Part shown: positions 1-59,623 of the stretch, piece by piece
Position numbering within the stretch: the first letter of the stretch is position 1
How the letters are laid out: each line of letters begins with the position of its first letter
Program-made: the position numbers and the translations under genes
The notes under the pieces: model-generated
Seen by the model: the letters and a program-made list of their open reading frames with translations, nothing else
Told to the model about the DNA's origin: nothing
The model's database searches: none
Sequence record: NC_020079.1
Reading direction: 5' to 3' (one strand)
Origin: Escherichia phage phAPEC8
DNA length: 64,000 nt

Positions 1-29
1 GGGCGCACCAAGCGCCCTTTCTTTTTATA
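1..29 (+). terminator. Rho-independent terminator (GGGCGCACCAAGCGCCC hairpin + T-run)
   Basis: GC stem-loop followed by TTTCTTTTT; identical copy at 5494-5520. Confidence 0.7.
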
Positions 30-47
30 TGTAGAGGATAAACAAAG

Positions 48-233
48 ATGACTTTAAGCGAGCTTAAAACAGCCTACAACGCAACGTTAAAAATAGCCGT
101 GCGTTACCGTGATGCGTATGGTTTTATCGCGCAGGGCGTGATCCTGGGCTTTTCTGACGATGGTTTGATCTATGTTGATGCACATCATAACAAGGTAAAA
201 CCTGAAAACGTCATTAGCATAAAATATCTTTAA
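48..233 (+). CDS. hypothetical small protein
   Basis: ATG ORF with upstream GAGGA SD-like sequence. Confidence 0.5.
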   Translation: MTLSELKTAYNATLKIAVRYRDAYGFIAQGVILGFSDDGLIYVDAHHNKVKPENVISIKYL

Positions 234-239
234 AAGTGG

Positions 240-268
240 TTGACACCATAACCGGACCTGTTAAACTG
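240..268 (+). promoter_or_regulatory. sigma70-like promoter (TTGACA, 17 bp, TAAACT) followed by GC hairpin
   Basis: -35/-10 hexamers read directly; GGGGAA..TTCCCC stem just downstream. Confidence 0.5.
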
Positions 269-318
269 TATTACATCAGGCGGGGAATAGTTCCCCACCA
301 TACAAAAAGGTAAATATC

Positions 319-525
319 ATGATCACAACAAAACAAGAAAAAATTATTACAGACATTGCCGCAGTAGCCGCTATTGCTATTATTGGTACCTACTATGACA
401 CCGCGCGTCCTTCCTCCTTGCATGAGGTCGCCGCCGTTGCATCAGTTGGCGTGCTGTTTTACGTTGGTAAACGCTATTTATCACCAATGATTAACAAGCT
501 GACACCGTGGAAAAATAAAGGTTGA
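319..525 (+). CDS. small hydrophobic (membrane) protein
   Basis: ORF; Ala/Ile/Val-rich stretches consistent with TM helices. Confidence 0.5.
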   Translation: MITTKQEKIITDIAAVAAIAIIGTYYDTARPSSLHEVAAVASVGVLFYVGKRYLSPMINKLTPWKNKG

Positions 526-576
526 TCCTGTTTTACATTGTGTTATAGTTATCGTGTAGGGCGGCAATGGTGCCGC
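522..576 (+). promoter_or_regulatory. promoter (TTGATC/TATAGT) plus conserved 5' hairpin GTAGGGCGGCAATGGTGCCGC
   Basis: hexamers with 16 bp spacer; 21-nt element repeated at 1787-1807 and 3202-3222. Confidence 0.55.
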
Positions 577-596
577 GCCCCTTTGAGGATGCAATC

Positions 597-881
597 ATGA
601 GTAAAGCTAACACCGTGCTAATGTTTTCCCTGATTAATGATCCCGCTTACTTGTCCAACATGACGCAGGAGGGTGACACATTAACGGCAACATTCACCAA
701 TAAGCTTGACCGAGTGATCATCATCTCACTGAAAACAGTTAGTAAAGGCTTTTACTCGTTAGCTTATCATTGGATCACCGATACCGATGAGACAAGCCAG
801 GACTATAGCGCCCCTTTCCCTGAATCAATGGCACGGGAGATCATCGCCGCCGTTGTAAATGATGGTTTGTTTACTGCATAA
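597..881 (+). CDS. hypothetical protein
   Basis: ORF; start moved to ATG 597 (GAGG SD) because track ATG 567 lies inside the 5' hairpin. Confidence 0.5.
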   Translation: MSKANTVLMFSLINDPAYLSNMTQEGDTLTATFTNKLDRVIIISLKTVSKGFYSLAYHWITDTDETSQDYSAPFPESMAREIIAAVVNDGLFTA

Positions 882-979
882 AATAATTCAGAAAAAGGCT
901 TGCAATCATTTTGGGATAATGTATATTTAATGCATAGGGCGGCGGGAATAGTTCCCAAAGCAAACGAGAGGATTACACG

Positions 980-1099
980 ATGAGCAAGTACACAGTAGAA
1001 TACACGGTAGAAAATCCGGCAGTATCCGAAGGTAAAAAGATGACATTTGCCATCAGTAAAATCGCTTTCGTTGTCACTATCTTATCAATCATCTTATAA
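980..1099 (+). CDS. small hydrophobic protein (39 aa)
   Basis: ATG ORF below track size cutoff, GAGAGG SD upstream, follows promoter+hairpin at 899-957. Confidence 0.4.
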   Translation: MSKYTVEYTVENPAVSEGKKMTFAISKIAFVVTILSIIL

Positions 1100-1109
1100 G
1101 GTGCATACC

Positions 1110-1271
1110 ATGAAAACAGCAGACATTATCAAAGAGATCGCCCTTGCCGCTGACGTTGAGATCGAGGAAGTGATCGCGCTCAATCTTACAGAAAACGATC
1201 TGCGCAACTATGAAGCGGAAAGCGTGAAAGCAAGCGGCGCGGTCCTGGCATATAATCCGGCTAACAAATAG
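1110..1271 (+). CDS. hypothetical small acidic protein
   Basis: internal ATG of track ORF 1047-1271 with AAGGTG SD. Confidence 0.45.
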   Translation: MKTADIIKEIALAADVEIEEVIALNLTENDLRNYEAESVKASGAVLAYNPANK

Positions 1272-1350
1272 TTTGACAAGCTGAATCAACCTGATAAGAT
1301 GTATCACATAGGGGCGACAAGCGCCCCGCCTAACAGAAGAGAGAAAAATC

Positions 1351-1629
1351 ATGACCATCGTTAAATTAACAACCGAAGAAATGAAAACAATGTTAACCAC
1401 TAATTTACAAAATTGGAAAATTGGTGTTGACGTTGAAACAGTGTGCAAGTTGAACGACAAACTAACACCGGACGACATTGAAACGATCATCCGTGCAGAT
1501 TTCTATGATGCTTTATACGATGATTCCACAGTCCTTGAAACGATGTTGGATAACGCTTGGATCAATCCCGATTTGGCGGCTTATGGTCATCTTGCCTTTG
1601 AAGCCATCCATAATGTTTATAATCGTTAA
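1351..1629 (+). CDS. hypothetical protein
   Basis: ORF after promoter (TTGACA 1272-1277) and GC hairpin; SD AGAGAGA. Confidence 0.55.
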   Translation: MTIVKLTTEEMKTMLTTNLQNWKIGVDVETVCKLNDKLTPDDIETIIRADFYDALYDDSTVLETMLDNAWINPDLAAYGHLAFEAIHNVYNR

Positions 1630-1639
1630 GGGGGATAAC

Positions 1640-1750
1640 ATGAATCCGAAAGATATGCAAGCATGGAAAGGGTACGACGATCTAAGCGCCTTGCGCAATA
1701 AGTCAAGCCGTAACCTTAGACGGTTGGAAGCAAAGAAAAAGAAAAAATAG
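1640..1750 (+). CDS. small basic protein (36 aa)
   Basis: ATG with strong SD AAGGGGGA; C-terminal part of track ORF 1478-1750. Confidence 0.4.
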   Translation: MNPKDMQAWKGYDDLSALRNKSSRNLRRLEAKKKKK

Positions 1751-1751
1751 T

Positions 1752-1807
1752 TTGACAAGTCCGCGTAGTCTGGTAATATGTATCTTGTAGGGCGGCAATG
1801 GTGCCGC
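1752..1807 (+). promoter_or_regulatory. promoter (TTGACA, 16 bp, TAATAT) plus conserved 5' hairpin GTAGGGCGGCAATGGTGCCGC
   Basis: hexamers and hairpin read directly. Confidence 0.6.
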
Positions 1808-1828
1808 TCACAAGAAGAGAGAAAAATC

Positions 1829-2113
1829 ATGAAAATCACAAAAAGCCTGACTAATTATGCAGCACGTCGCGGATTATGTTTAACCGTTGAAAACTTAGGG
1901 AAAGAAGACTTTTTGTGTTTTTGGGAGCTTGAAAATGATTGCGAATGGATGTTTTCTTATTCTATCTGCGAAGATCAAAACGGTTGTTTGTTAACCTGGC
2001 GCGGTAATATCTATTTACCGGAAGAAATTAAAGAAGAGCTACCAGGTACGATCATGACAGAGAGACAGCTTAAGGAAGTGATCAATTTTGTAGGGCAAAA
2101 CATTAAAAAATAA
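1829..2113 (+). CDS. hypothetical Cys-rich protein
   Basis: ATG with same leader (AGAAGAGAGAAAAATC) as gene at 1351. Confidence 0.5.
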   Translation: MKITKSLTNYAARRGLCLTVENLGKEDFLCFWELENDCEWMFSYSICEDQNGCLLTWRGNIYLPEEIKEELPGTIMTERQLKEVINFVGQNIKK

Positions 2114-2198
2114 TTTGACAGCAGGCAAACAACGTAGTAAAGTTTATTACATAGAGCGGCGGAATGGTCCACCGCTCACAACAGAAGAGAAACAAATC

Positions 2199-2369
2199 AT
2201 GATCCCGACTATGTTTTATGTATCGCGCAAAGGTCACAATATTTTTTGGTCTGAAGATTTAAATGAAGCTATGACGTTTGCCCGTGATCGTGTTGCTATC
2301 GGTGGCGTTAACATCACTGTAACCGATGAAAACGGTATTGAATACTATAACGGCGACGATGAAGAATAA
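2199..2369 (+). CDS. hypothetical small protein
   Basis: internal ATG of track ORF 2115-2369 after promoter/hairpin, conserved leader. Confidence 0.45.
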   Translation: MIPTMFYVSRKGHNIFWSEDLNEAMTFARDRVAIGGVNITVTDENGIEYYNGDDEE

Positions 2370-2446
2370 TTAATGAGGCGGGGGAGTATTCCCCGCCGTC
2401 AATAGGGCGGGGCAATAAGGCAACGCCCACTAATGAGGGTAAAATC

Positions 2447-2551
2447 ATGTTAGAGAAAATTTTCACGGTTGCAGTGGTTGGCCTGGCGTTATCGGTTGGA
2501 GTAGTTGCAACTATGGCTAACATGATCCTATCTTCCCACGGTATCGGTTAA
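2447..2551 (+). CDS. small hydrophobic peptide (34 aa)
   Basis: ATG ORF below cutoff; SD GAGGG; single TM-like segment. Confidence 0.35.
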   Translation: MLEKIFTVAVVGLALSVGVVATMANMILSSHGIG

Positions 2552-2561
2552 GGTGAAACAA

Positions 2562-2777
2562 ATGATCACGAACAAAACAGGCAAAACGGAATTTTTACGC
2601 GGCTTACAAGTTGGTAAACCTGAGATCTGGCATTGCACGAAGTCCGCGCATAACGAAATGAAAGATTTCACCGCTACTTTACAACGTGTTAAAATATCTA
2701 TTACGCAGAAAAAAGCCTTATTAGTAGTAGAAAACGAGATCCCGCAAACTATTATTATTGTCGAGCGTACAGCATGA
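2562..2777 (+). CDS. hypothetical protein
   Basis: track ORF 2553-2777; ATG 2562 preferred over GTG 2553. Confidence 0.45.
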   Translation: MITNKTGKTEFLRGLQVGKPEIWHCTKSAHNEMKDFTATLQRVKISITQKKALLVVENEIPQTIIIVERTA

Positions 2778-3160
2778 AAACAGAAATCATTATTGAAATC
2801 ATCAACGGCTATAAAGAAGCCTTTATTTTTGCTGAATCAGCAAGGGATCATGAAGGTAATTTTATTGATAACTTAGACGATTATGATTTTTCTCCTAGTG
2901 CGGATCAACGGATCGCCCAGGATGTAACAGCCTTTATTAATGCTAATCTTGCCGCTATCTCTGAGGCAATGAGCGACGGCGCAACAGCCAACCAGATCGG
3001 GAATGATTTACATTTTACCCGTAACAGTCACGGCGTAGGCTTTTGGGATCGCCCTGAAATATACACCACTAACACGGCGAACCGCCTAACCAATGCAGCT
3101 AAGTTTATGCCGAACGTGTCGGCTTACATTGGTGAAGATAATTTGATTTATATTGAATAA
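2774..3160 (+). CDS. hypothetical protein
   Basis: ORF, ATGA overlap with upstream gene. Confidence 0.5.
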   Translation: MKTEIIIEIINGYKEAFIFAESARDHEGNFIDNLDDYDFSPSADQRIAQDVTAFINANLAAISEAMSDGATANQIGNDLHFTRNSHGVGFWDRPEIYTTNTANRLTNAAKFMPNVSAYIGEDNLIYIE

Positions 3161-3166
3161 AAAGTA

Positions 3167-3222
3167 TTGACACAGATCGCCAGTGTGCTAATATTTACCA
3201 CGTAGGGCGGCAATGGTGCCGC
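3167..3222 (+). promoter_or_regulatory. promoter (TTGACA/TAATAT) plus conserved 5' hairpin GTAGGGCGGCAATGGTGCCGC
   Basis: third exact copy of the 21-nt hairpin element. Confidence 0.6.
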
Positions 3223-3241
3223 CGATAATGAGGAAAATAAA

Positions 3242-3541
3242 ATGGAAACTATCGCTATTGTTACCGTAGAAAAACTGGTTGTTGGTGATGTATTCGCGTT
3301 AATGGTACCTAACAGCAGCAAGCTGGGCGCTTATGAAGTGATGGATCATAAAAATGAATCATTTGGCGACGGTTGCACAATGGCGGTAAAATCCTTAAAG
3401 GATGGAATCATCCGTCAAGCTAATTGGCACAAAGGGAATCAAGTCGGATTAATATCAGCTAATTTCTTGCCAGAACAGCAAACGTTAGACCAACTATCAG
3501 GCGGTAAGACGTTAGCCGAACTACTGGAAACAGCGATCTAA
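3242..3541 (+). CDS. hypothetical protein
   Basis: ORF with SD GAGGAAAA. Confidence 0.55.
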   Translation: METIAIVTVEKLVVGDVFALMVPNSSKLGAYEVMDHKNESFGDGCTMAVKSLKDGIIRQANWHKGNQVGLISANFLPEQQTLDQLSGGKTLAELLETAI

Positions 3542-3585
3542 TCAACAAAGGGGCGGCAACGCCCCACATCAGAAAGGAAAAGATT

Positions 3586-3822
3586 ATGAGTATTGCAACA
3601 GTATTAACCGCCGTTAAAACCGCTGAATCATCCGGCTTGCATGTTGAGCTTATAGATCAACCAGGTGGCGATCTCCTTGTCCAGGTTTACCCGCCGAAAG
3701 TAGGGGATGATCATTATTGGTGTTATTCTGATACGTTCGAACAAGTAGACACGAAAGCGATCACAGCCTTTATTTTAAAAGCCGTTGAAGAAAATAACTT
3801 TCATTATAACATCAATCAATAA
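3586..3822 (+). CDS. hypothetical protein
   Basis: ORF preceded by GGGGCGGCAACGCCCC hairpin and A-rich SD. Confidence 0.5.
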   Translation: MSIATVLTAVKTAESSGLHVELIDQPGGDLLVQVYPPKVGDDHYWCYSDTFEQVDTKAITAFILKAVEENNFHYNINQ

Positions 3823-3876
3823 ACCATAAGCAGGGCGGTAACGCCCCATTAAACGCAATAGGAAGAGGATAGACGC

Positions 3877-4161
3877 ATGAAAAAGATGATCGCAGTAGTT
3901 GCCCTGGTTGTTGGTATTAACGCGCCTACACTGGCTAATGAGTTGCCAGAATCCATCACGCTAACCGACATCAACGCAGTGAATCGGATCGGTGTTAATT
4001 ATCGCCTATGCCTTGCCGCTAAAACTTTCCAGGACGGCACGACAGAGTACTACGGATTCGAGGGTATCCGCTGCGGTGAGCTTGCACGCGACCTTAAGGA
4101 AGATCCAGACCTTGAGGCCATACCGATGACCGTAAACGGTAAAGCCCACGTAAACCGCTAA
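3877..4161 (+). CDS. secreted/periplasmic small protein
   Basis: N-terminal signal-peptide-like MKKMIAVVALVVGINAPTLA. Confidence 0.55.
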   Translation: MKKMIAVVALVVGINAPTLANELPESITLTDINAVNRIGVNYRLCLAAKTFQDGTTEYYGFEGIRCGELARDLKEDPDLEAIPMTVNGKAHVNR

Positions 4162-4163
4162 CC

Positions 4164-4298
4164 ATGAGAAAGGTAATCATCACAATGGGGATCGTAGTAG
4201 CAACGCTGGCGCTTATCCCTTTCATGGTTGAACATGTGCTGATCAGTGTTGTCCTTGTAGTCAGTGACCTATTGGAAACGGTTGGCACCTGGTTTTAA
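4164..4298 (+). CDS. small membrane peptide (44 aa)
   Basis: ATG ORF below cutoff; hydrophobic; terminator-like hairpin + T-run at about 4307-4332. Confidence 0.35.
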   Translation: MRKVIITMGIVVATLALIPFMVEHVLISVVLVVSDLLETVGTWF

Positions 4299-4550
4299 GA
4301 TAATAAATAGGGCTTGCAATAGTCCTATTTTTTGTTATACTTGTTGAACGGGCGGCACCTGGGAGCAGGGGAAGATAATCACCGGAAGACTCCGCTATAT
4401 ATTGATAACTAACGCCTATCAAACAACAAAACATCAAAGTAACAAACTATCAAATCTTTACAATTCCACCTATTGACACCGGATCACGCTTACACTATTA
4501 TTTATCACGTAGGGCGAGCAATACAGCAAGCCCACAAAGAGGAAAATAAA

Positions 4551-4919
4551 ATGAGCAAATCAGCAATTAAAGCACTTGAAAAAGCACAAAAAGTGATCGC
4601 CACTTCCACCACTGGCACAAGTATTAATCTGGTCGCTTACTTGGAAGATGAAACTATCCGTAAAAATTGGCGTAATGCTGATTTACTGGCTTGCTTGTTG
4701 ATTAATAGTGTCGCTAATGCTTTCCAGTGTGAAACAGCCGAGAGCCTAGAACAAAACTTGTTCGATAATATGGACCAAGCAATTGAAACATATATCCAAT
4801 CTAATTTGGACAGCTGGAACAGTAAAACATGGCCTGACAGCTTACGCGATACAACTGATCAACTGATCCGCCTTGCCCTGATGGTTGAACGCGATAACGT
4901 TTACAACAGCACAAAGTAA
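4551..4919 (+). CDS. hypothetical protein
   Basis: internal ATG with SD AGAGGAAAA; track ATG 4473 lies inside the TTGACA promoter. Confidence 0.5.
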   Translation: MSKSAIKALEKAQKVIATSTTGTSINLVAYLEDETIRKNWRNADLLACLLINSVANAFQCETAESLEQNLFDNMDQAIETYIQSNLDSWNSKTWPDSLRDTTDQLIRLALMVERDNVYNSTK

Positions 4920-5058
4920 GATTATACAAGGGCGCACTAAGCGCCCTTTAACGTAAAGAAATGTAAATAATGCGCTATTCCCTATTGACAGGGGATCGGC
5001 GTTATATTATATTTAACTCACTGGCAGCAAACAACGAAACGAAACAAAGGACAACACC

Positions 5059-5478
5059 ATGAACATTAAATCAAATAATCCGGCTTACTCCTTCGATAAC
5101 GCTTTTTGTCACGGTAGCGCCGCCAAAGGCTTCGAAATCGATGGTAAATTGGTTATCGTGAACGTTGACGGGGAAGAGGTTGCAGTATATCCGGTAAACG
5201 ATGTTAAAAGCCGTTTACAATGCCGCATGGATGTTACCGCATATCAGCTTGATCCGATCCGTGTAGTTGCCCTGGTATTAGAGGAAGAGATCAAAGCAAT
5301 GCATCACAGCAATAAGTTTATTGGTGACGCGCAGGATAATATGAACGTTTGCCGCCATAAAGTTAATGAAGCACTGAAAGAATGCGGTTTTAAGGATCTG
5401 ATGATCAAACGTGATGAAAAATTCCGCTTTCGTAATGACCTGGCAAACCGGATCTACTCAATCTATGAAGCGTTATAA
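5059..5478 (+). CDS. hypothetical protein
   Basis: ORF after promoter TTGACA 4985-4990. Confidence 0.55.
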   Translation: MNIKSNNPAYSFDNAFCHGSAAKGFEIDGKLVIVNVDGEEVAVYPVNDVKSRLQCRMDVTAYQLDPIRVVALVLEEEIKAMHHSNKFIGDAQDNMNVCRHKVNEALKECGFKDLMIKRDEKFRFRNDLANRIYSIYEAL

Positions 5479-5493
5479 TTGACAACAAAACAA

Positions 5494-5520
5494 GGGGCGC
5501 ACCAAGCGCCCTTTCTTTTT
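5494..5520 (+). terminator. Rho-independent terminator, identical to 1-29
   Basis: GGGCGCACCAAGCGCCC + TTTCTTTTT. Confidence 0.7.
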
Positions 5521-7020
5521 GCCCGAACAATGTTGATAGCTTTCGCCTATGAAAAACCGACACAGAACAAAATTGAATAAATCGCGGTATCGAGCTAATC
5601 AACCATTAAACGAATAACCATACCTCCCAGGGTAACAGGCTGTTAGAGAGCCATTTAAAGCGGTTAAAATCGATCAACAACCAACAACAAACCATCAAAA
5701 ACACCCTTTTACCTCCTTTCTAGTGCAATGATAACCATTATCATCTATCCATGTTTATCTATGCAATATAAGTGCATAACTATAATGTTGATAATAGTTC
5801 GCAACAACTAACTAACCAACAACCTAAAACAATAAGCAAACTAATCATAATCAAAGGAATAATAGCAAGATGATTGATAACGACAAACAATCAAACCATG
5901 ATGAATACTAAGCAAGATAACGATAACACGACAAAACAACCAACTAACGAACAATAACAAACGAAACCATTAAAATAACAACTATTAGCAAAATAGTGCC
6001 TGAATGAAATCATTACAAAACGAATCATTCACAGGATCATCATTAGCACGCTATGCCGGACACATAGCGAGCTAATAATAAGCCAACTACACCCCAACAA
6101 TCATAACCATCGGTGATGGTTATTTCTTGTTACTGCGTAGCTTGCAATAATTGCAAGCGTAATTACGCTTACACTTATTGCGCTGGCTTATTATTAGCAT
6201 TATATGTAATTACCAAGATCATAACATTAGCGCAATAACAATAATCATTGTGGTAATTACAAGATGAGATCATTAGCAAGATGAATAATTGCACGTAGCA
6301 ACATGAGCGAATAGCGACAGGTTGCATAGTGTGCACATAGTGTATAAACATACAAGAAAATAAAGGCTAATCTTTTGGGGGCGAATACTATCGCGTAGCG
6401 ATATGTTGAGCACCTTCTCTTAAACGTAAATAAAATCAGAATAATCTTGATTTATTTTAGTTTTTATGTTAATAAACGTTTAAATAATAATCATTCTCAT
6501 ATAAATAATAGTCCGTTTGTCATGAGCGGGATTAGTTGACAGTGTTCCGTCATATGATGAAGTTGCCAACCCCTTGATAAATAAGCCTTTGTGTGATTTA
6601 TAATCAAGTGGCCCACCTTGTCGCTACGTTGGCATGAAGCTTGCATAAGTCATTGAATACGAATGATAATTATTCTCATTCGCATGATATTTGGGAATTG
6701 TCGCTGCGTGGACCTGACGGCCCGAAAATTCGCGTTAAGCACTTCTTACGTATACGCCATGATTTTTGCCATATGATATTGATTCTATTAGATATTCTTG
6801 CCATGATTGCCATGAAACAGGGTGTCCCGAAATAATCTCTCCCCGTAGATATTTTGGGTTACTTTTTATACAAGAGTGGGGTGTCAAAAATAATCGGTAT
6901 ATATGGGATAATTGATAGGAATCCCCTATGATAATTCGATTGTAATTCCCTAAGATTGATCGTATGATGTTGGTGATTGATGATTGCCATGAAAGATGGC
7001 TAACGATGAGAGGAGATTAT
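5521..7020. other. ORF-poor, A+C-skewed, palindrome-rich non-coding region
   Basis: no credible ORF; CAACAA-type low complexity; palindromes GCGTAATTACGC, TTGCAATAATTGCAA; repeated CATTAGCA and TTGCCATGA motifs. Confidence 0.6.
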
Positions 7021-7021
7021 C

Positions 7022-7366
7022 ATGCAAGAGAGTAAAAATGTTCCGTTGAGTAGTTTACGTCTAATGAAGTTTTACAAAGCTTGGCTTGCTGGTGAGGTAG
7101 AAGGTCACACAACGAGTGGCTTGTGCATATGTTTGATTAAGTATGTAGAGGGAACATATCCTGATGAACTGTTACCTCGTCTACAACAGGAGATGAAATC
7201 ACAGTTTATTGGTGCAGGACTGGATTACAATTTCCCGTTTAATGAAGGTGGTTATGAGGAATACACCTTCGAACATAAAAAACATATTTGCCATAAAAAC
7301 AAACATCGTATACAATGGGTGCTAGATAGAATTCAAGATTACGAAGGAGAGAAAAATGACAAATAG
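7022..7366 (+). CDS. paralog family A member 1 (FY..W / GLC / GL..PFN / R..WV.DR motifs)
   Basis: ORF with SD; shared motifs with six other ORFs. Confidence 0.6.
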   Translation: MQESKNVPLSSLRLMKFYKAWLAGEVEGHTTSGLCICLIKYVEGTYPDELLPRLQQEMKSQFIGAGLDYNFPFNEGGYEEYTFEHKKHICHKNKHRIQWVLDRIQDYEGEKNDK

Positions 7367-7724
7367 TATTCCGTTGAGCAGTGCAACATTGCTTCGCTTC
7401 TATAAAGCATGGATTGCCAACTATCCTGCAATGAATCGCACAACGAGTGGCTTATGTGGTTGTCTGGTAGATTATGTAGATGATTTTGTTGGTGAGACAA
7501 CTAGAGAAGAAGATAGAAGATGGCGGGATAGTTTGTTGGACCGTTTGAAATATGAAATGAGGAAACAATTTACATGTGCAGGGCTGGACTATAATCTTCC
7601 GTTCAATGCAGATTGCATGGATTACCTTTCAGAGTGTATAAACTTGGCGTGTCATACCAACACGTTACGTCTTCAATGGGTGAAAGACAGAATTGAAGAT
7701 GCAAATAATGCTTGCATTGAATAA
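7356..7724 (+). CDS. paralog family A member 2
   Basis: LLRFYKAWI, SGLCGCL, AGLDYNLPFN, RLQWVKDRI. Confidence 0.6.
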   Translation: MTNSIPLSSATLLRFYKAWIANYPAMNRTTSGLCGCLVDYVDDFVGETTREEDRRWRDSLLDRLKYEMRKQFTCAGLDYNLPFNADCMDYLSECINLACHTNTLRLQWVKDRIEDANNACIE

Positions 7725-7773
7725 AAATGTCTGTATAGTGGATGACATAACAGATAGCCAATGAGGAGATGAA

Positions 7774-7983
7774 ATGAAGAATTTGAAAACTGTCACAATG
7801 TTCTTGACTGATCCTACACGTGTGCAAGCACTGGCTAAAGCCAGCCGTGTAGCTGTAGAATTCCAAAACTTTAAGCCGTCCGTTGTGACAGGCAGTGAAA
7901 CGTGTGTTATCGATTTCATTAACGAATACTTCCGAGGGAATCCGGTTAGTCGTTACTTCATTAAGGGTCTGAAGGATGCATAA
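7774..7983 (+). CDS. hypothetical protein
   Basis: ORF with SD GAGGAG. Confidence 0.5.
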   Translation: MKNLKTVTMFLTDPTRVQALAKASRVAVEFQNFKPSVVTGSETCVIDFINEYFRGNPVSRYFIKGLKDA

Positions 7984-7984
7984 T

Positions 7985-8206
7985 ATGAAACGCATGAAAA
8001 TTCGTATTGAGAATGATGGTGGTTATAAAGGATTGGCACATGCAAAATTTCCACTTGTGTTGGAAGCTACGGTGGAATACAGTGGGCTTGCTCATGTGCG
8101 ATTCTCGAAGATGATGGAAGTGCAGGAATGGTTTTGGGACGAGATAGATGCACGAGAAGGAGAAGATTATGTTTTCTTTCCTCACGAATATAACATTGTC
8201 TATTAA
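7985..8206 (+). CDS. paralog family B member 1 (W.W..E...G.DYVFF motif)
   Basis: C-terminal motif shared with 11486-11707; second ATG chosen to avoid overlap. Confidence 0.5.
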   Translation: MKRMKIRIENDGGYKGLAHAKFPLVLEATVEYSGLAHVRFSKMMEVQEWFWDEIDAREGEDYVFFPHEYNIVY

Positions 8207-8209
8207 AGG

Positions 8210-8458
8210 TTGTGTGCAATGATCACACCACAACAGAATGAAGCCGCAATGGATCTTCTTGATAGTTTGTATTTCGATAATTGGTACTCTGAATGTGAAT
8301 GGATGAATATGCAAACTCTGAAAGAGAAGACAAAAGCGTTGATTACAGTAGATCAATTTCTTGCAGAGACGGAAAGAATGAATTATGATATGGCATCTCG
8401 CGCACGACGCGTTTCCATTTTCAATAAAATGTTAGCATTATGGGGAGGTAGAAAATGA
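8210..8458 (+). CDS. hypothetical protein
   Basis: ORF tiling. Confidence 0.5.
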   Translation: MCAMITPQQNEAAMDLLDSLYFDNWYSECEWMNMQTLKEKTKALITVDQFLAETERMNYDMASRARRVSIFNKMLALWGGRK

Positions 8459-8916
8459 GACAACTATCTATACTAGAAGCGCATGTGCAATGTGTTGTAG
8501 ATTATGTCAAAGAACACTCAAGTTTGTTGAATGTAACCTGTGCAGTGCAAAACGATGTAGGTATTGTCTGTGTGCAACATATCTTATCTGAAACTCGTTA
8601 TGAAGTATTTCGTGCCACGTTGTTTGGATGTGATCGAGTACATGTAAACTTCCTGGACTCCAATTATCGTTATGCTTTAGAAAATATTGATGATTATCTT
8701 CCTTGCTCTCCGACAGGATATGTAATGGTAACAGCAAACGAAGTAACGCCAAACAACAGTGAGCAGGAAGCTTTGTTACGGAAGAAAATACGCCAACTAC
8801 AAGTGTTGAATGAACTGAAAGAAGAGATTGAAAAAGAACTAAAAGAAGATTTTGGTATGCTTCCAAAAGACGCTTTGAAATGGTATGATGAACTAGGAGG
8901 AGAGAACAATGTTTAA
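8455..8916 (+). CDS. hypothetical protein
   Basis: ORF, ATGA overlap, SD GGGGAGG. Confidence 0.55.
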   Translation: MRQLSILEAHVQCVVDYVKEHSSLLNVTCAVQNDVGIVCVQHILSETRYEVFRATLFGCDRVHVNFLDSNYRYALENIDDYLPCSPTGYVMVTANEVTPNNSEQEALLRKKIRQLQVLNELKEEIEKELKEDFGMLPKDALKWYDELGGENNV

Positions 8917-9358
8917 AGAAGGTCATGTCTACCGTTTCCAGGATGAGGATTATATGCGATTATATTCTACCTTTGATAACAGCATTGCTGCTATCATTGG
9001 AGAGAATTTTTTCGAGGTGTTGAGCACTGATACAAATGGTAATATCTTGTCAATGGTTGTGATAGGTATGAGAGACGGTATTATCACTGCTGGTGATGGG
9101 GATCGTTACATAATCAATTCGGCTCATATAGATTATTTTGTTGACGGTGGTGGTCGTGGAAAACCTCAAGAAGAACCCGCAGTGAATTTTAAACACTATG
9201 CTATTGTTAAAGGTATGAATGTCCAACTGGTGTCACATTCTTACGAAGAGATCGCCACAGAAGCAAAAAAGATGAAGGAAGAATACCCAATTTCTACTGT
9301 TGAGATCTATGAGCGTATTGGTGTTGTTAGTATTGAGCCTACTGCGGTAATAAAATAA
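8909..9358 (+). CDS. hypothetical protein
   Basis: ORF, SD GGAGGAG. Confidence 0.55.
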   Translation: MFKEGHVYRFQDEDYMRLYSTFDNSIAAIIGENFFEVLSTDTNGNILSMVVIGMRDGIITAGDGDRYIINSAHIDYFVDGGGRGKPQEEPAVNFKHYAIVKGMNVQLVSHSYEEIATEAKKMKEEYPISTVEIYERIGVVSIEPTAVIK

Positions 9359-9367
9359 GGAGTTATT

Positions 9368-9805
9368 ATGTTCAAAGTTAATGCTGTTTACTGTTTCAAA
9401 AGTAAAGCTGCCTGTGAAGCTTTCTCTATGATCTCTGATGAAAATTTCAAAATGGCAGCTTTGATTGAAGGGTCTTGTTTCCGCGTCGAAGATGTTAGTG
9501 AATCAGGGTCTGTTTGCTCATTGACTTTATTGGACAGCGGGGATATTATTGAAGCTGGACAGTATCCGTTCAGAAGTTGGGAGATATTGTTAGCTCGCGG
9601 AGAGCGTAACTTTTTTATGTGTGTGTCTGCGGGGGAAGTTGTGAAAGAAACTAAGGATGTTTCTGTTTACAATTCTGAATTTATAAGTTATAGTGAGTAT
9701 CAACATCTGGAAGGCATTGTTGGTCACTTGTTATCTCTGATTGACGTTGAATGTGACCTGCCTGAATCATTGAAAGAAGAGTTGAAAGCATTAGATCTGT
9801 TATAA
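9368..9805 (+). CDS. hypothetical protein
   Basis: ORF, SD AAGGAG. Confidence 0.55.
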   Translation: MFKVNAVYCFKSKAACEAFSMISDENFKMAALIEGSCFRVEDVSESGSVCSLTLLDSGDIIEAGQYPFRSWEILLARGERNFFMCVSAGEVVKETKDVSVYNSEFISYSEYQHLEGIVGHLLSLIDVECDLPESLKEELKALDLL

Positions 9806-9832
9806 TGTTTCGCACAACGAAAGGAGAATAAG

Positions 9833-10132
9833 ATGAATCTGACCGAACAGTTACGCCGTATTGCAAAAGAAGCTTCCTTCAACTTCCCTGTTGAAGAAGT
9901 GATCGAGACATGTTTTGCTGAAGCACGAGCGGGAAACTCTTCAAGAAATTTCACGCCATCTGATTTTGGTCTGGATAATTCCCCTACCCACCCAGGGGAG
10001 ATCTACAATCAGGTGAAGTGGATGGATGAAGCAGTAGCAATTCTTCGTGAGCGTGGACTTATTGTTTATAAAGAAATGGATTTGAACGGAGCATACGAGT
10101 GGATCACTATTGATTGGTCGGAGGTGAAATGA
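9833..10132 (+). CDS. hypothetical protein
   Basis: ORF, SD AAGGAG. Confidence 0.55.
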   Translation: MNLTEQLRRIAKEASFNFPVEEVIETCFAEARAGNSSRNFTPSDFGLDNSPTHPGEIYNQVKWMDEAVAILRERGLIVYKEMDLNGAYEWITIDWSEVK

Positions 10133-10341
10133 TGGTTACTATTACATTGACAGTTACACAAGAGCAAGCAGAAGAATTGCGTGACGCAGTGGCATACATG
10201 GGACGTTCTTATTATATGCCTCATAAATCTCAAGATGTTTTTGCTACAGCCGTTGAGAAAGCTTTAAACAAATATCGAGAAACTCATGCCGTTCCTAAAG
10301 TATCAGCAGAAGAGTTTGGCACTTGGCACGAAGTTCACTAA
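10129..10341 (+). CDS. hypothetical protein
   Basis: ATG after GGAGGTG; track start 10114 is TTG. Confidence 0.5.
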   Translation: MMVTITLTVTQEQAEELRDAVAYMGRSYYMPHKSQDVFATAVEKALNKYRETHAVPKVSAEEFGTWHEVH

Positions 10342-10351
10342 GGAGGTTTCG

Positions 10352-10585
10352 ATGAAAGGTAACAAGATGAAAGTTAATCAGGTACCAAGCGCATACACTT
10401 TGTGGCTTGCGCGAGCGTTACACCAGACGATCAAAAACCCTAAGAAGCCAATGAAGAGCGGGAAGAAGTTTATGTCTAAGGGCAAAACAACCTTTGGCTT
10501 CACTCGTATGTCTGTTAAGATGAAAAGGCTGGGGTACAAGCCAAACTACGCTCGTTACCCTTCCGAATACAACTGGTTTGACTAA
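10352..10585 (+). CDS. small basic (Lys-rich) protein
   Basis: internal ATG with SD AAGGAGG. Confidence 0.5.
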   Translation: MKGNKMKVNQVPSAYTLWLARALHQTIKNPKKPMKSGKKFMSKGKTTFGFTRMSVKMKRLGYKPNYARYPSEYNWFD

Positions 10586-10598
10586 AAGGAGAAAGATT

Positions 10599-10775
10599 AT
10601 GGCTACTTTTCAACAATTGAAAGATGTTTCACGTTTAGTAAGAAAAATCCGAGAAGCAGACGCTGCTGTGCGGAATGCACTAACACCAGCAGAGCGTGAA
10701 GATCTTGAAGAGGAGGTGAAAACAGCCGAGAATGCTTTTGCTGTGTATCTTTCAACACTGCATACGGGAGGCTAA
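10599..10775 (+). CDS. hypothetical small protein
   Basis: ATG with SD AAGGAG. Confidence 0.5.
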   Translation: MATFQQLKDVSRLVRKIREADAAVRNALTPAEREDLEEEVKTAENAFAVYLSTLHTGG

Positions 10776-11090
10776 ATGTCAGAGGAACTTAAAGAATTTT
10801 ATCAAGCATATCATAACTGGCTGTTAGCTGGTGCTCCAGACAATAATCCTTTCTGGCATGATAAAGGTTTGTGCAGTTGCCTCTATCTTTGGTCTGGTGG
10901 TTATGATGATCTAAATTATGAAATGCAAATGCAATTCCGCGAAGCAGGATTGTCTGAAGAATACCCGTTTGATGACGGAGACTGGTTTAAATATGATTTT
11001 GCACAAAGAAACGGGCTATTGCATTTGAATGCTGCCCGTATAAAATGGGTAAAAGATCATGCTACACAGGAGGATGTGCAATGCCAATAG
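10776..11090 (+). CDS. paralog family A member 3
   Basis: EFYQAYHNWL, KGLCSCL, AGLSEEYPFD, RIKWVKDH. Confidence 0.6.
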   Translation: MSEELKEFYQAYHNWLLAGAPDNNPFWHDKGLCSCLYLWSGGYDDLNYEMQMQFREAGLSEEYPFDDGDWFKYDFAQRNGLLHLNAARIKWVKDHATQEDVQCQ

Positions 11091-11281
11091 TGTTTAGTTT
11101 CTTGGTAATTGTTATGGTTGTTCTTTTCGCGGCATGGCTTTGGGATTTTGACCCAGGAGCAGCGCAGCAAAGAGCTACAGACTGGAAAGAACAATGTATT
11201 GTGCTCAAACATGAACGAAATGCGGAGAAATTTCTTGACCTGGAGTGTGATCGCCTTGTAAGATACAAGCAAGATAAATAA
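11081..11281 (+). CDS. small membrane protein
   Basis: ATG with SD AGGAGG; N-terminal hydrophobic helix. Confidence 0.5.
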   Translation: MPIVFSFLVIVMVVLFAAWLWDFDPGAAQQRATDWKEQCIVLKHERNAEKFLDLECDRLVRYKQDK

Positions 11282-11295
11282 CCTTGAGGTGCAAA

Positions 11296-11484
11296 ATGAT
11301 AATTGAGATTAAACTTGAATATGCTGGGGCTGTTGCTCTGATCGCACAAATGCTTGGAGCAAAGATTGAAGAAGTGTATATCAATGCCTGGAGCGTAGAG
11401 ATTGATGTTCCTATGGACAACATTGCTAATCGCTTGCTGGTGGCAGAGTGTGAACGCACCAACATAATCTACAAAGGAGCATAA
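11296..11484 (+). CDS. hypothetical small protein
   Basis: ATG with SD GAGGTG. Confidence 0.45.
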   Translation: MIIEIKLEYAGAVALIAQMLGAKIEEVYINAWSVEIDVPMDNIANRLLVAECERTNIIYKGA

Positions 11485-11485
11485 T

Positions 11486-11707
11486 ATGAAAATTAGAGTT
11501 TGTGATGTATTGGGTTATGTTGGTTTTGAGAATGTTCAGATTCCTTTTATTGTTGAAGCACATCTTGTTAGTGATGATATGACAACATTCTTTGTTACGA
11601 TAGAAGAAATGTCCAAAGTTGAGGGATGGGAGTGGTTTGAAGAAGATGTTTGGGAAGGTTGTGATTACGTATTTTTCTCTGACGAAGTGAATGTTCTTTC
11701 GGAGTAG
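11486..11707 (+). CDS. paralog family B member 2
   Basis: EGWEWFEEDVWEGCDYVFFSDEVN matches 7985-8206 C-terminus. Confidence 0.5.
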   Translation: MKIRVCDVLGYVGFENVQIPFIVEAHLVSDDMTTFFVTIEEMSKVEGWEWFEEDVWEGCDYVFFSDEVNVLSE

Positions 11708-11709
11708 GT

Positions 11710-11916
11710 ATGTCTCGTTTTACAAAAGCAGTGTCCATATGTAAGAAACAGTATGAAAGTGATTACGGAATATTTAATATTCCAGCGGATCATACAGAGT
11801 ATTGTTCATGTGGTAGCAGAATGAAGAAAACAGTGATTTATGCGGATAATGGAGATGAACTTGTTCCGGTTATGGTTTGCAAAGCTTGTCATTCTGTTAA
11901 AACATTAAAAGCGTAA
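11710..11916 (+). CDS. small Cys-rich (zinc-ribbon-like) protein
   Basis: CSCGSR ... CKACH pairs. Confidence 0.45.
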   Translation: MSRFTKAVSICKKQYESDYGIFNIPADHTEYCSCGSRMKKTVIYADNGDELVPVMVCKACHSVKTLKA

Positions 11917-12011
11917 GGAGTCGGGACACCCGACGATTGGAGCTAAAAATTTTGCGTACAACCCTTTCCGCCCAACAGGGGCGCGTCGGGTAAATAAAGA
12001 GGAGAGTTTAT

Positions 12012-12410
12012 ATGAAAAAGATCATCGTAGGTTTATTGTTACTCATTGCATCACTCGGAACAGCAAATGCGTCTCAAGTTTATGAGTGTGTGTCAGAGGT
12101 GGTTGTTAAAAATCTGAAAGGTGAAGTGATTTCTGGTCCTAAGAAAATGGCTTCTGTTGTCATTAATAAAGATAACTCCTTTATCCTTAAAAATTCAGGT
12201 GGTGCTTTGATGAGTGGCATTCTGCAATACACAGGAGAAAAAAGTAAAGATGGTAGTGCTATGTATGGTTCACAACAGTTTATTGGCACTACTGAAGTTG
12301 TGATGATGCGCACAGAGTATCGAGACACTTTAGCTTGGTTTGCATTTCTAAAAAATGATAAAACAATAACGAATGTTCTTACTCTAGAAGCTGATTGTAC
12401 GCAACGATAA
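12012..12410 (+). CDS. secreted protein
   Basis: signal-peptide-like MKKIIVGLLLLIASLGTANA; SD AGAGGAGAG. Confidence 0.55.
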   Translation: MKKIIVGLLLLIASLGTANASQVYECVSEVVVKNLKGEVISGPKKMASVVINKDNSFILKNSGGALMSGILQYTGEKSKDGSAMYGSQQFIGTTEVVMMRTEYRDTLAWFAFLKNDKTITNVLTLEADCTQR

Positions 12411-12419
12411 GGGGGATTT

Positions 12420-12875
12420 ATGACTAAAATGAGACATTACGCTGTAAACTGCAACGATGCTTGGCGTTTGTGTCCTGATGATCCGACAGAAGGCACATTT
12501 GTAAGATATGAAGATTATAAAAAGTTATCGGATGCTGTAATCGCATTGTTAACTGATATCCGTTCACGTTATCCAGGACAAGATTTCACTTGCCCTCACA
12601 TCAAACTTCTTGCTTGCCTGGTAGAAGGTGAGAAAGAAGTGGAAGATGGCTTCAAGCGTGTAGAGTATCAAGGTGAAACTTTAGATGTTCCTGAATTTGT
12701 TAATTATATTGCAACAGATTCAAGTGGCGAGCGTTATGGTTACACTCATAAACCGGAGATTCCAGATTTCGCTTATGCGTGGCGTATTCCTTATGAAGTT
12801 TTTAATGTTGCAGATTGCTGGTATTTAGGAGAAGGAAACAACCTTAATTGGCGTGATTCCTTGGTTCAGGTTTAA
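12420..12875 (+). CDS. hypothetical protein
   Basis: ORF, SD AAGGGGGA. Confidence 0.55.
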   Translation: MTKMRHYAVNCNDAWRLCPDDPTEGTFVRYEDYKKLSDAVIALLTDIRSRYPGQDFTCPHIKLLACLVEGEKEVEDGFKRVEYQGETLDVPEFVNYIATDSSGERYGYTHKPEIPDFAYAWRIPYEVFNVADCWYLGEGNNLNWRDSLVQV

Positions 12876-12879
12876 CAAT

Positions 12880-13143
12880 ATGAAAGAGACATTACCAGCA
12901 GCATACCGTTTGAATGATGAACGTATTTGGGAGTGGACCGACGTTTCTTGTTTTTACCCTGAAATAGTTCAATATTGGCGAGCAAAAGGGTGTGTTGTAG
13001 TTATCAACCCATGTGGACCAGTGGATGAAGATTGCTTGTATCTCGATGGAAAGTGGCACAGTTATTGTCGCTGGCCTTTTGAGTGGATGTGTAAAGAAGA
13101 TCTCCCAGAGGGTTGGGAGTATCCAAAAGCAAATAGGAGATAA
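12880..13143 (+). CDS. hypothetical Cys/Trp-rich protein
   Basis: ATG 12880 avoids overlap; track start is GTG 12853. Confidence 0.45.
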   Translation: MKETLPAAYRLNDERIWEWTDVSCFYPEIVQYWRAKGCVVVINPCGPVDEDCLYLDGKWHSYCRWPFEWMCKEDLPEGWEYPKANRR

Positions 13144-13144
13144 T

Positions 13145-13507
13145 ATGTCTAAAGATTTTGTTGAAATGTTTGTCAAAGATGAAGAAACTGGTTTAGGCAC
13201 AGGTTTCATTTGTGAAGAAACCTTTAAACGTGAACAAGAAAAAGCTATTCTTATGCGAAACTATGATCACGCATTAGAACAATGGAAAAATGCAGAACAA
13301 AAATGCAAAAACCTTTATGCAGAAAATAGAAAACTACAAGATCAAATGGAGTTGTTAGCTATCAGTTTACGATCTCTCATTTTGGCTGTAGAAGATGGTT
13401 TTAAAAATCCAGATGGTTTTCCTGTGAGCGATATTGAACATGATTTGTATCTTGCTCGTGGTGCTTACTTCTATGTTAAACAGAAGTCTGTAGAAGGAGA
13501 GAAGTGA
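13145..13507 (+). CDS. hypothetical protein
   Basis: internal ATG with SD AATAGGAGA. Confidence 0.5.
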   Translation: MSKDFVEMFVKDEETGLGTGFICEETFKREQEKAILMRNYDHALEQWKNAEQKCKNLYAENRKLQDQMELLAISLRSLILAVEDGFKNPDGFPVSDIEHDLYLARGAYFYVKQKSVEGEK

Positions 13508-13704
13508 TGGAAGAAAAACTGGAACGTATTATCGAGTTAGCCATGTCTATTGGCTACGACGATTGTTTTCTCCAAACTATTGGAGAAACAGAGAACGATT
13601 ACGACTCTTGGGTGAAAGAGTTGGAAGAACTTAAAACTTCCTTGATTGCTGACTTTGCTGAAGCAGAGGATAAAGCAGATCGTTACAACTATCTGTGTCG
13701 ATAA
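13507..13704 (+). CDS. hypothetical small acidic protein
   Basis: ATG after SD GAAGGAGAG. Confidence 0.5.
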   Translation: MEEKLERIIELAMSIGYDDCFLQTIGETENDYDSWVKELEELKTSLIADFAEAEDKADRYNYLCR

Positions 13705-13766
13705 GCCTTGACATTTATTTTATGTATGGTATACATACATTATCAACGTGAGCAAGGTGGTGTAAT

Positions 13767-14039
13767 ATGAATAAAGATCGGTTTCTTTCTTTAGTCGCGG
13801 AAGCTCCTTTTGATGTTCTTGGGGTGAGATTATGGAAAGACAGAAACTATGGGTTAGATGTTCAAACATACTCTCTTTGGTTGGTTGGGGAACACAGCTT
13901 AGATGAAAGCTTGTGCATGGGTAGGGATTCTCGTTCCCTCTGTTTAAAGTTCAGAAGCTTAGAACGCGCAAACAAAGAGCAAGAAAAACTAACGAGGTGG
14001 CTAAATGAAAACAAGCGCAAGGTTGATGGAGTTTTATAA
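13767..14039 (+). CDS. hypothetical protein
   Basis: ORF after promoter TTGACA 13707-13712; SD AAGGTGG. Confidence 0.5.
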   Translation: MNKDRFLSLVAEAPFDVLGVRLWKDRNYGLDVQTYSLWLVGEHSLDESLCMGRDSRSLCLKFRSLERANKEQEKLTRWLNENKRKVDGVL

Positions 14040-59142: not shown

Positions 59143-59214
59143 GGCCCTGTAGCTCAATGGGAGAGCTGTCGGCTCATAACCGATAGGTAGCTGGATCGAA
59201 ACCAGCCAGGGCCA
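59143..59214 (+). tRNA. tRNA-Met (anticodon CAT)
   Basis: manual cloverleaf: acceptor GGCCCTG/CAGGGCC, loop CTCATAA, T-loop GATCGAA, CCA encoded. Confidence 0.75.
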
Positions 59215-59219
59215 CCAAC

Positions 59220-59616: not shown

Positions 59617-59623
59617 CCAGATT

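Follow-up and report, generated by a model that had tools for sequence, protein, structure and literature searches.

A probable packaging terminus and a conserved folded element in the gene-free region of Escherichia phage phAPEC8

The genome of Escherichia phage phAPEC8 contains approximately 1.5 kb of DNA in which no credible gene was recognized, and the question is what role such a stretch plays. It occupies positions 5521–7020 of the 64,000 nucleotides analyzed from sequence record NC_020079.1, which are called the window hereafter and to which all coordinates refer. A sequence-only reading had described the stretch as poor in open reading frames (ORFs), strand-skewed, and rich in palindromes, lying between two early gene blocks. 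It had listed four candidate roles, namely, a replication origin, an injection or packaging signal, a transcriptional insulator, and a non-coding RNA (ncRNA) locus, and had chosen none. Comparison with related phages indicates that the region is very probably the concatemer junction of a phage that packages its DNA with a short direct terminal repeat. A folded element of five helices and a block rich in A and C lie to the left of the repeat, and their possible roles were weighed separately.

Probable terminal repeat and the motif at its edges

By its sequence, the window is assigned to Phapecoctavirus, that is, to a phAPEC8-like myovirus of the subfamily Stephanstirmvirinae with a genome of approximately 150 kb. 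phAPEC8_ev052 was 97% identical to the window over 1.7 kb around the region, and the region was present in 83 related phage records. Stephanstirmvirinae genomes have direct terminal repeats at their ends (PMC12695924). The ends of related records were located on the window, and the following features were assigned.

Positions 6409–6737, no strand assigned: homologue of the direct terminal repeat, seen as exact end repeats in deposited relatives.
Positions 6389–6417, plus strand: left-end module, a hairpin TATCGC-GTA-GCGATA (6389–6403) followed by TGTTG^AGCACCTTC, with the cut (caret) between 6408 and 6409.
Positions 6731–6746, plus strand: right-end motif CGCGTTA^AGCACTTCT, with the cut after 6736 or 6737, where the Schickermooser and Mt1B1_P17 records end.
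Positions 6645–6700, no strand assigned: deeply conserved block within the repeat, with a GAATGA..TCATTC near-palindrome and TCATT repeats.
Positions 6204–6388, no strand assigned: spacer between the folded element and the repeat, conserved to approximately 6250, variable over 6250–6400, and carrying further copies of (A/C)ATTAGC(A/G).

A sensitive search showed that several deposited linear relatives have record ends inside the interval. The first 329 nt of Schickermooser were identical to its last 329 nt and aligned to 6409–6737, and the first 328 nt of Mt1B1_P17 were identical to its last 328 nt and aligned to 6409–6736. The record of 10C3_SA_NWU begins at 6409. The left end at 6409 was common to three independent Phapecoctavirus records and the right end at 6736/6737 to two, and the records of WPEC1 and WPEC6 have ends at the same point. 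In a second genus, the first 342 nt of BME3 were identical to its last 342 nt and mapped to positions 3584–3925 of muut, which are homologous to the repeat interval of the window. The terminal repeats of Schickermooser and BME3 have been published as 328 bp (PMC6563267) and 342 bp (PMC12210895), respectively, and the repeats of relatives were called by PhageTerm or from coverage in these studies. Thus, two properties of the short direct-terminal-repeat class were found in relatives: the same sequence stands at both ends of Schickermooser, Mt1B1_P17, and BME3, and fixed, non-permuted ends are indicated by the shared record ends, by the second genus, and by the conserved motifs at the edges.

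A terminus with a packaging role is well supported by these comparisons. By homology with relatives that are 91–97% identical here, the virion DNA of phAPEC8 would start at 6409 and end at 6736/6737. Among the four listed roles, the packaging signal is the one to which the ends and terminal repeats of the relatives point, as they map to 6409–6736/6737. The repeat is present in a single copy in the window because the record was joined across the ends. In the virion, the two early gene blocks sit far apart, one at each end of the DNA, which explains why they look different; the description of a region between two early gene blocks therefore holds on the circularly joined map but not for the DNA in the particle.

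Both edges of the repeat carry GTTR^AGCAC in identical orientation, as ATGTTG^AGCAC on the left and CGCGTTA^AGCAC on the right; the edge sequences are ...TATCGCGTAGCGATATGTTG^AGCACCTTCTCTTAAACGTA and ...AAAATTCGCGTTA^AGCACTTCTTACGTA. The motif was found at both edges in 19 of the 21 genomes compared, and in the other two R is C at the right edge. The left-edge motif was present in all 21 (all sampled lineages, five known only from metagenomes). The right-edge form CGCGTT(A/C)AGCA was also present in 21 of 21, with the final A of CGCGTTA replaced by C in Wec190 and PsgM04F. Wherever both edges could be assigned, the predicted repeat length was 321–353 nt. GTTRAGCAC occurs three times in the 64 kb, and two of the occurrences lie exactly at the independently mapped ends. 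When IMG/VR was scanned with the right-edge motif, 95 loci were obtained, nearly all of them chance matches and four relevant, and a scan with the core motif returned the same four. The metagenome scan provided five useful new lineages and three unrelated matches.

The hairpin at the left edge shows compensatory change. Its sequence is swapped between strains, with complementarity kept in most of them, and the variants CCGCC-ACA-GGCGG, CCGCC-TAT-GGCGG, TATACCGC-ATA-GCGGTATA, and AACCCT-GCT-AAGGGTT were observed, together with one strain in which the loop was flipped to TAC. In several lineages, one or two extra modules of hairpin plus TGTTG^AGC, approximately 67 nt apart, lie in the spacer upstream of the true edge. 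Inside the repeat, the block at 6645–6700 was near-invariant in 16 of 17 lineages, with an insertion in Tr1, while the remainder of the repeat diverges; the block is a candidate protein-binding site. A weak minus-strand promoter-like site (6697–6669) overlaps it. The A/T-rich start of the repeat (6420–6483) holds a 64-nt imperfect inverted repeat, TTAAACGTAAATAAA ... TTAATAAACGTTTAA, enclosing AATCA...TGATT, and is approximately 72% conserved between genera.

Several points weigh against this placement of the ends. The ends of phAPEC8 itself are predicted from its relatives only, at 95–97% identity, and the reliability of deposited record ends depends on how the depositors determined them. Related records also open at arbitrary points in the region, as ESCO13 does at 5556 and ESCO5 and ESCO37 do at 6661. 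The BME3 record (PP239276.1) appears to have an internal duplication of approximately 1.2 kb round the terminal repeat and includes runs of N, and its 'DTR-L' annotation is offset by 73 nt from the sequence that its two record ends share; BME3 was used solely for the identity of its two record ends and not as a clean reference. With respect to the motif, two to three copies in the window against approximately one expected are not significant alone, and the weight of the edge motif comes from its position and conservation instead of its count. As a direct repeat, the motif does not by itself fit the simplest model of staggered nicks on opposite strands, and the action of a terminase at it is putative.

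A scheme for the formation of the ends can be proposed for such a junction. Unit genomes would be excised from the replicated concatemer at this region, and the 328–329 nt between the cuts would be present at both ends of the particle DNA. The right end of the virion DNA would comprise the genes at 1–5478 with their terminator, followed in turn by the A+C-rich block, the folded element, the spacer of variable sequence, and one copy of the repeat. At the left end, the other copy would precede the promoter-like sites at 6807–6968 and the tightly packed operon from 7022. A terminase or a partner nuclease would recognize GTTR^AGCAC at each edge of the repeat; the left edge also carries the small hairpin, which some lineages have in several copies. 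Duplication of the repeat may follow one of the proposals made for T7, namely, strand displacement or synthesis primed by a hairpin or by primase. The cutting protein, the direction of packaging, the manner of repeat duplication, and the roles of the element and the A+C-rich block are what we infer from this arrangement.

The gene-free gap and its flanks

The description of the region as poor in ORFs was upheld. The longest ORF with an ATG, GTG, or TTG start that touches the region encodes 65 amino acids, and the longest stop-to-stop frame in 5479–7021 has 93 codons, a value equally low in 2 of 125 equal-sized windows of the 64 kb. A frame is kept intact over its full length only in the nearly identical Wec181 and in none of the other lineages. 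Moreover, frames of both strands match relatives equally well, which is a signature of DNA conservation and not of protein conservation. Curated relatives have no gene in the interval, which in ASO2A separates genes 016 and 017, and the same gap was seen in ESCO13, phAPEC8_ev052, AV126, EF1-1, ZCKP1, DE16, phiWec190, and phiWec181. Every other Stephanstirmvirinae lineage compared has a gene-free gap of 1.5–2.1 kb. Elsewhere in the 64 kb, one stretch has an even shorter longest open frame, of 66 codons.

Small proteins overlooked by gene callers might nevertheless be encoded here, since several deposited relatives annotate six to nine 'hypothetical proteins' in the region, and short coding sequences (CDSs) are placed across the gap in the records ETEC-TG, EP57, PsgM04F, Tr1, and FKP3. 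However, the CDS calls disagree on position and strand from record to record. The longest open frame stops at 93 codons, stop codons arise in other lineages, and overlapping frames on opposite strands score alike. Close relatives differ by insertions and deletions of 1, 10, 18, and 19 nt, and conservation tracks base-paired helices instead. A protein-coding role is thus regarded as highly improbable.

The non-coding DNA was better conserved than the flanking genes. Over 5500–6250, identity was 95–100% in close relatives and mostly 85–98% in the phiWec/PsgM04F group (53% at 6200–6250), in which the terminal repeat was only 43–91% identical. The trough of conservation lies at 6250–6400, with 53–74% identity even in close relatives. 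Poor conservation in related phages, which would have spoken against the sequence-only reading, was therefore not what the comparison revealed, as the region outconserves the adjacent genes. Those genes, at 5000–5480 and 7050–7500, form a mosaic, with several close relatives lacking them or carrying others in their place (loci L002 and L013–L016).

Matches in the region also came from records labelled Campylobacter phages A145, A150, B15, and C3, Pseudomonas phage PsgM04F, Acinetobacter phage ABPW7, and 'Dompiswa phage'. Across the region, these were 72–96% identical to Phapecoctavirus or Justusliebigvirus of E. coli. To judge from this similarity, the host labels look doubtful, or else these phages are unusually widely distributed. 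No description of the non-coding or intergenic region of these phages was found in the literature searched, in which the phi92 genome paper was not covered.

The gap is bordered by two features of the neighboring gene blocks.

Positions 5492–5514, no strand assigned: two-way intrinsic-terminator-like hairpin closing the right-end gene block, with a T-run on the plus strand and CTTGTTTTGT after the stem on the minus strand.
Positions 6738–7021, plus strand: leader of the left-end operon, with promoter-like sites from a promoter scan at 6807–6836, 6865–6894, and 6940–6968 and, ahead of the start codon ATG at 7022, the ribosome-binding site GAGGAG.

The terminator at 5492–5514 was found on both strands by a terminator scan. 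Its stem, GGGCGCACCAAGCGCCC, occurs together with the T-run twice, approximately 5.5 kb apart, at 1–26 and 5492–5517, the first stem lying at 1–17. The first 26 bases of the window exactly match the homologous Schickermooser terminator, which indicates that a terminator cassette was reused within the right-end gene block. The two sides differ in promoter style, as had been claimed: seven promoter-like sites with a perfect TTGACA were found in 1–5500 and none in 7000–14000. Consistent with this, the annotation of a relative shows promoters and terminators scattered among the genes on the left side and tightly packed genes on the right side.

The interval 6738–7021 is most simply read as the promoter and leader of the left-end operon. 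The last of its promoter-like sites (6940–6968), TTGTAA-17-TATGAT, lies at +231 from the right cut here and at the similar distance of +240/+269 in Justusliebigvirus. The 15-mer ATGATTGCCATGAAA has two copies (6803 and 6980) and none elsewhere in the window; it is not kept in all relatives and may be an operator. The identity to muut was 92% over 6846–7054. This phage of a different genus was 92–99% identical to the window over 6846–7054 and 7369–7500, a similarity that suggests a recent exchange of the left end between genera. The genes at 7022–7366 and 7356–7724 are tandem paralogues with similar N-termini and overlapping start and stop codons, both belonging to PHROG 2510 (unknown function). 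Pfam and PHROG searches with the four flanking genes gave no function. Farther away, 11 tRNA genes are clustered on the plus strand at 59143–61148.

Between the terminator and the folded element lies the part of the gap with the most unusual composition.

Positions 5521–6030, no strand assigned: A+C-rich non-coding block (G+T-rich on the minus strand) with G-free stretches and the strongest A+C skew in the 64 kb.

The A+C fraction was 0.72 at 5801–6100, the strongest A+C skew in the window, whose mean was 0.506 with a standard deviation of 0.040. Each of the nine 300-nt windows with the highest A+C content in the 64 kb falls inside 5451–6200, the GC skew minimum in the region was −0.36, and the AT skew maximum was +0.36. 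The strand skew noticed from the letters is therefore real and is the most extreme in the window. The block was 95–98% identical in close relatives and approximately 70% identical to Justusliebigvirus. At the position of the block, A+C exceeded 0.5 in nearly all 100-nt bins in all 15 lineages, and the sign changed at the element.

At approximately 5988–6000, phiWec190 and AV126 carry independent 18–19-nt insertions at the small hairpin ACTATTAGCAAAATAGT, each partly duplicating the hairpin. In muut (3069–3130), and also in inny and arall (Justusliebigvirus), a 'repeat_region' of approximately 60 nt is annotated within the A+C block, just left of the element.

The block is a candidate for the 3′ part of a minus-strand RNA, for a Rho-loading zone, or for part of an origin. 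The listed role of a transcriptional insulator would apply here in the sense that 5521–6030 keeps early transcription out of the packaging signals. Plus-strand RNA reading past the terminator at 5492–5514 would be C-rich, G-poor, and unstructured, making it an ideal Rho-loading site, and the C>G block (GC skew to −0.36, with G-free runs) lies directly downstream of seven consensus promoters, all pointing toward it. The persistence of the A+C excess in nearly all bins of all lineages despite diverged sequence also fits this role. However, composition alone leaves the 95–98% identity unexplained where adjacent DNA is far more diverged, and the skew is much weaker in other genera (0.52–0.65). An insulator was therefore considered improbable.

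A folded element beside the repeat

Between the A+C block and the spacer lies a structured element, whose helices are given below with their two arms.

Positions 6038–6203, minus strand: conserved five-helix element of 166 nt, approximately 200 nt left of the repeat, recognized by covariation and fold energy.
Helix H1, the closing helix: 6185–6198 with 6071–6084.
Helix H2: 6166–6181 with 6144–6159.
Helix H3: 6135–6142 with 6085–6092.
Helix H4: 6115–6123 with 6103–6111.
Helix H5: 6062–6069 with 6049–6056, with a nearly invariant loop (CCGGACA on the plus strand).

Compensatory changes were visible by eye in the cross-lineage alignment of 6025–6215. With 16 distinct sequences, RNAalifold predicted five helices for either strand, but the fold was much better on the minus strand, with 53 pairs, 14 of them compensatory, at −67.4 kcal/mol; the plus strand had 44 pairs, 12 of them compensatory, at −46.7 kcal/mol. 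In the minus-strand structure, 99.9% of 845 pair cells were canonical, compared with 24–53% when the partners were slid by one to three columns. The covariation score was 0.274, against 0.02–0.055 for slid partners, and was reached by none of 500 shuffles. A model-guided alignment of 24 distinct sequences, which leans towards the model, showed 99.5% of 1272 cells paired and 15 compensatory pairs. This alignment replaced a 23-sequence MAFFT alignment in which one hairpin was misaligned and RNAalifold switched to a local palindrome. Thus, a conserved structure with compensatory change, the mark of a structured ncRNA, was observed in 14–15 pairs.

A covariance model built from the 16 sequences found a single copy in the 64 kb, at 6038–6203 on the minus strand (189.8 bits), and partial matches of 17–25 bits at the same place on the plus strand. 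It also recovered five metagenomic lineages unused in its building, with 135–179 bits. No match to Rfam 15, which includes phage packaging RNA (pRNA), was obtained at E ≤ 1 over 4500–8000, and at E ≤ 10 over 5990–6260 only chance matches of 12–18 bits appeared, compared with gathering scores of 43–169.

The hairpin at 6103–6123 had been considered as a plus-strand terminator of an A+C-rich RNA and was rejected, as its T-run is unconserved and the hairpin is the internal helix H4. The stem has only three G-C pairs and covaries, and the T-run is lost in Tr1, FKP3, L092, and related sequences (TCTCATG, ATTCGTG).

The palindromes noticed from the letters were counted as well. Perfect palindromes of at least 8 nt numbered eight in 1.5 kb, or 5.3/kb against 3.0/kb window-wide (approximately 1.8 times), and they are denser in some other 500-nt windows of the 64 kb; the claim of dense perfect palindromes is therefore weak. 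Imperfect inverted repeats, in contrast, are plentiful, the 16-nt AAGCGTAATTACGCTT at 6155 among them, and these form the conserved helices.

The element is a folded single strand under selection, more likely the minus strand, as judged from the alignments. It may be an RNA transcribed leftwards toward the two-way terminator at 5495–5511, which was given only slightly less than an even chance. Alternatively, it may act in end processing or priming as a signal made of single-stranded DNA or a cruciform, which appears distinctly less probable. In its wider form, the RNA explanation takes the left part of the region, 5495–6400, as a minus-strand ncRNA gene that would be transcribed leftward through the five-helix domain and the G+U-rich stretch to a stop at 5511–5495; this was judged nearly as probable as its opposite. 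An ncRNA gene is compatible with the terminus, and the two are not mutually exclusive.

The strand bias argues for the RNA. Read on the plus strand, the same 53 pairs were 89.9% canonical, against 99.9% on the minus strand. All 84 non-Watson–Crick paired cells, in 11 columns, were G·U on the minus strand, where no A·C occurred, and none was G·U on the plus strand. One-sided transitions in seven pair columns keep pairing on the minus strand only (e.g., C-G to U-G in 8 of 16 sequences). The better energy of the minus strand in the consensus recurred when the window's own sequence was folded as RNA (minus strand −77.1 kcal/mol, z −9.1; plus strand −60.7 kcal/mol, z −7.8). In addition, G exceeds C on the minus strand here, as it does on the sense strand of the phage's genes, and a terminator-like hairpin faces the minus strand at 5511–5495.

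However, no positionally conserved sigma-70-type promoter was found across the lineages on either strand, only weak sites. A minus-strand TATAAT at 6204–6199 is unconserved outside the genus, and a start from it would fall inside helix H1; the site at 6697–6669, within the terminal repeat, is weak and missing in many lineages. Given the richness of the minus strand in G and T, some of the invariant G·U pairs may extend helices by chance. Folded DNA likewise tolerates G·T wobble, and when the element was folded as DNA (−46.9 on the minus strand and −40.2 on the plus strand), both strands were far better than shuffles. No transcriptome or transcript data for these phages were found in the literature searched. 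The listed ncRNA locus is thus possible for 6038–6203, where covariation was strong and G·U pairs favored the minus strand, but a conserved promoter was not found.

Short repeated motifs surround the element. Two exact copies of CATTAGCA were counted in the region, and part of this motif falls within the helices. ATTAGC has 8 copies in the region out of 34 in the window, and the three copies of TTGCCATGA in the region are the only ones in the 64 kb, in agreement with the repeated motifs originally reported. TTAGC/GCTAA occurs seven times in 5950–6400, against 0.87 expected. Oriented TTAGC copies cluster round the element in nearly all 15 lineages (two to three copies in muut and ECGD1) and are candidate protein-binding sites. 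DnaA-box, IHF-site, and GATC counts showed no enrichment in the region, with no DnaA box and one IHF consensus site.

These motifs bear on the replication origin, another of the listed roles. The region would be, or contain, an origin with A/T-rich inverted repeats (approximately 6420–6500), iterated motifs, and the folded element as a priming signal. It is the largest gene-free stretch in that part of the genome, its GC content falls to 0.31–0.36, and the cumulative GC skew has a local minimum at approximately 6000–6300. The oriented TTAGC repeats clustered in nearly all lineages, the TCATT repeats inside the terminal repeat, and the change of sign of the A+C skew at the element in all lineages are also consistent with an origin. 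In T7, packaging of plasmids reportedly required a replication origin together with the concatemer junction (Chung and Hinkle 1990, by its title as cited in PMC4281155), which was counted in favor. However, the region has no DnaA boxes, no initiator gene adjoins it, and the flanking genes have no known function. The skew minimum is due to the A+C block alone and is not a genome-wide switch, and the origin of rV5 was not definable by skew analysis (PMC3606486), which was also counted against. An origin here is accordingly considered unlikely.

Known systems and meaning of the proposed terminus

The closest likeness of the proposed terminus is to T7, and also to SP6 and phiEco32, which share fixed unit-genome ends, a repeat of a few hundred bases, and DNA without genes on the left side of that repeat. 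Further T7-type traits are a palindrome or hairpin next to the repeat and, on the inner side of its left copy, promoter-like sites of host type. In T7, cutting proceeds in several steps, during which the repeat has to be duplicated, and an intermediate with a hairpin has been seen (summary in PMC4281155). Unlike T7, with which no sequence similarity exists, the host of the present region is a large 150-kb myovirus, the same oriented motif stands at both edges, and the left hairpin module covaries and is iterated in some lineages. We know of no T7 counterpart of the 166-nt multi-helix element or of the 500-nt A+C block.

The element can also be compared with folded nucleic acids of other systems. 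The pRNA of phi29 is a folded RNA of approximately 174 nt encoded within a few hundred bases of the genome end. The likeness is one of size and near-end position only, an analogy by which a packaging role for the element is conceivable; the ends of phi29 are protein-primed, whereas a terminal repeat is present here, and no Rfam pRNA match was obtained. G4-type origins, plasmid ssi signals, and Frpo are strand-specific multi-hairpin DNA folds of 100–300 nt that tolerate G·T wobble and are linked to priming. The element resembles them in its strand-specific multi-hairpin fold, but they act on naturally single-stranded DNA, whereas no known step exposes the minus strand of 6038–6203 here. No sequence or family match was found between the element and ssi-type signals.

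The first-step-transfer region of T5 is a repeat- and palindrome-rich non-coding stretch near the genome end, next to early genes that have strong host promoters. A pre-early region of the T5 type, including an injection-stop signal, was considered and rejected, as the window is of Phapecoctavirus and not T5-like. The terminal repeat of T5 is approximately 10 kb (PMC6563267), against 0.33 kb here. The genome map of rV5 (Vequintavirinae) contains an unexplained ORF-free 'non-coding' box (PMC3606486). rV5 is likewise a large myovirus of the same broad group with such a box; no nucleotide similarity of the region to rV5-type phages was detected.

The short terminal repeats of phAPEC8-like and phi92-like phages have already been published, so that placing the ends here is no novelty by itself. 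The novelty lies in the surroundings of the ends, namely, one conserved cut motif at both edges in all sampled lineages, a hairpin module beside the left edge with compensatory changes, and especially a single-copy, strand-biased five-helix element outside the catalogued RNA families; none of the three seems to have been described before. Tentatively, the element may represent a previously unknown kind of structured nucleic acid that is confined to Stephanstirmvirinae and acts at the genome end. It could be a pRNA-like minus-strand RNA for packaging or end processing, a primer or priming signal for repeat duplication, or a folded DNA signal directing the terminase to one of several GTTR^AGCAC sites. 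If this rather doubtful idea is true, the modules of hairpin and cut motif would be a previously unrecognized kind of terminase cut signal. The elements described here are precise, mutable targets for asking how short repeats are recognized, cut, and duplicated, a question that stands even for T7 and is new to large myoviruses. Phages of this kind are isolated widely for use in therapy and biocontrol, and many of their deposited genomes were opened arbitrarily or carry spurious small genes in this region. The motifs let the true ends be placed by sequence alone.

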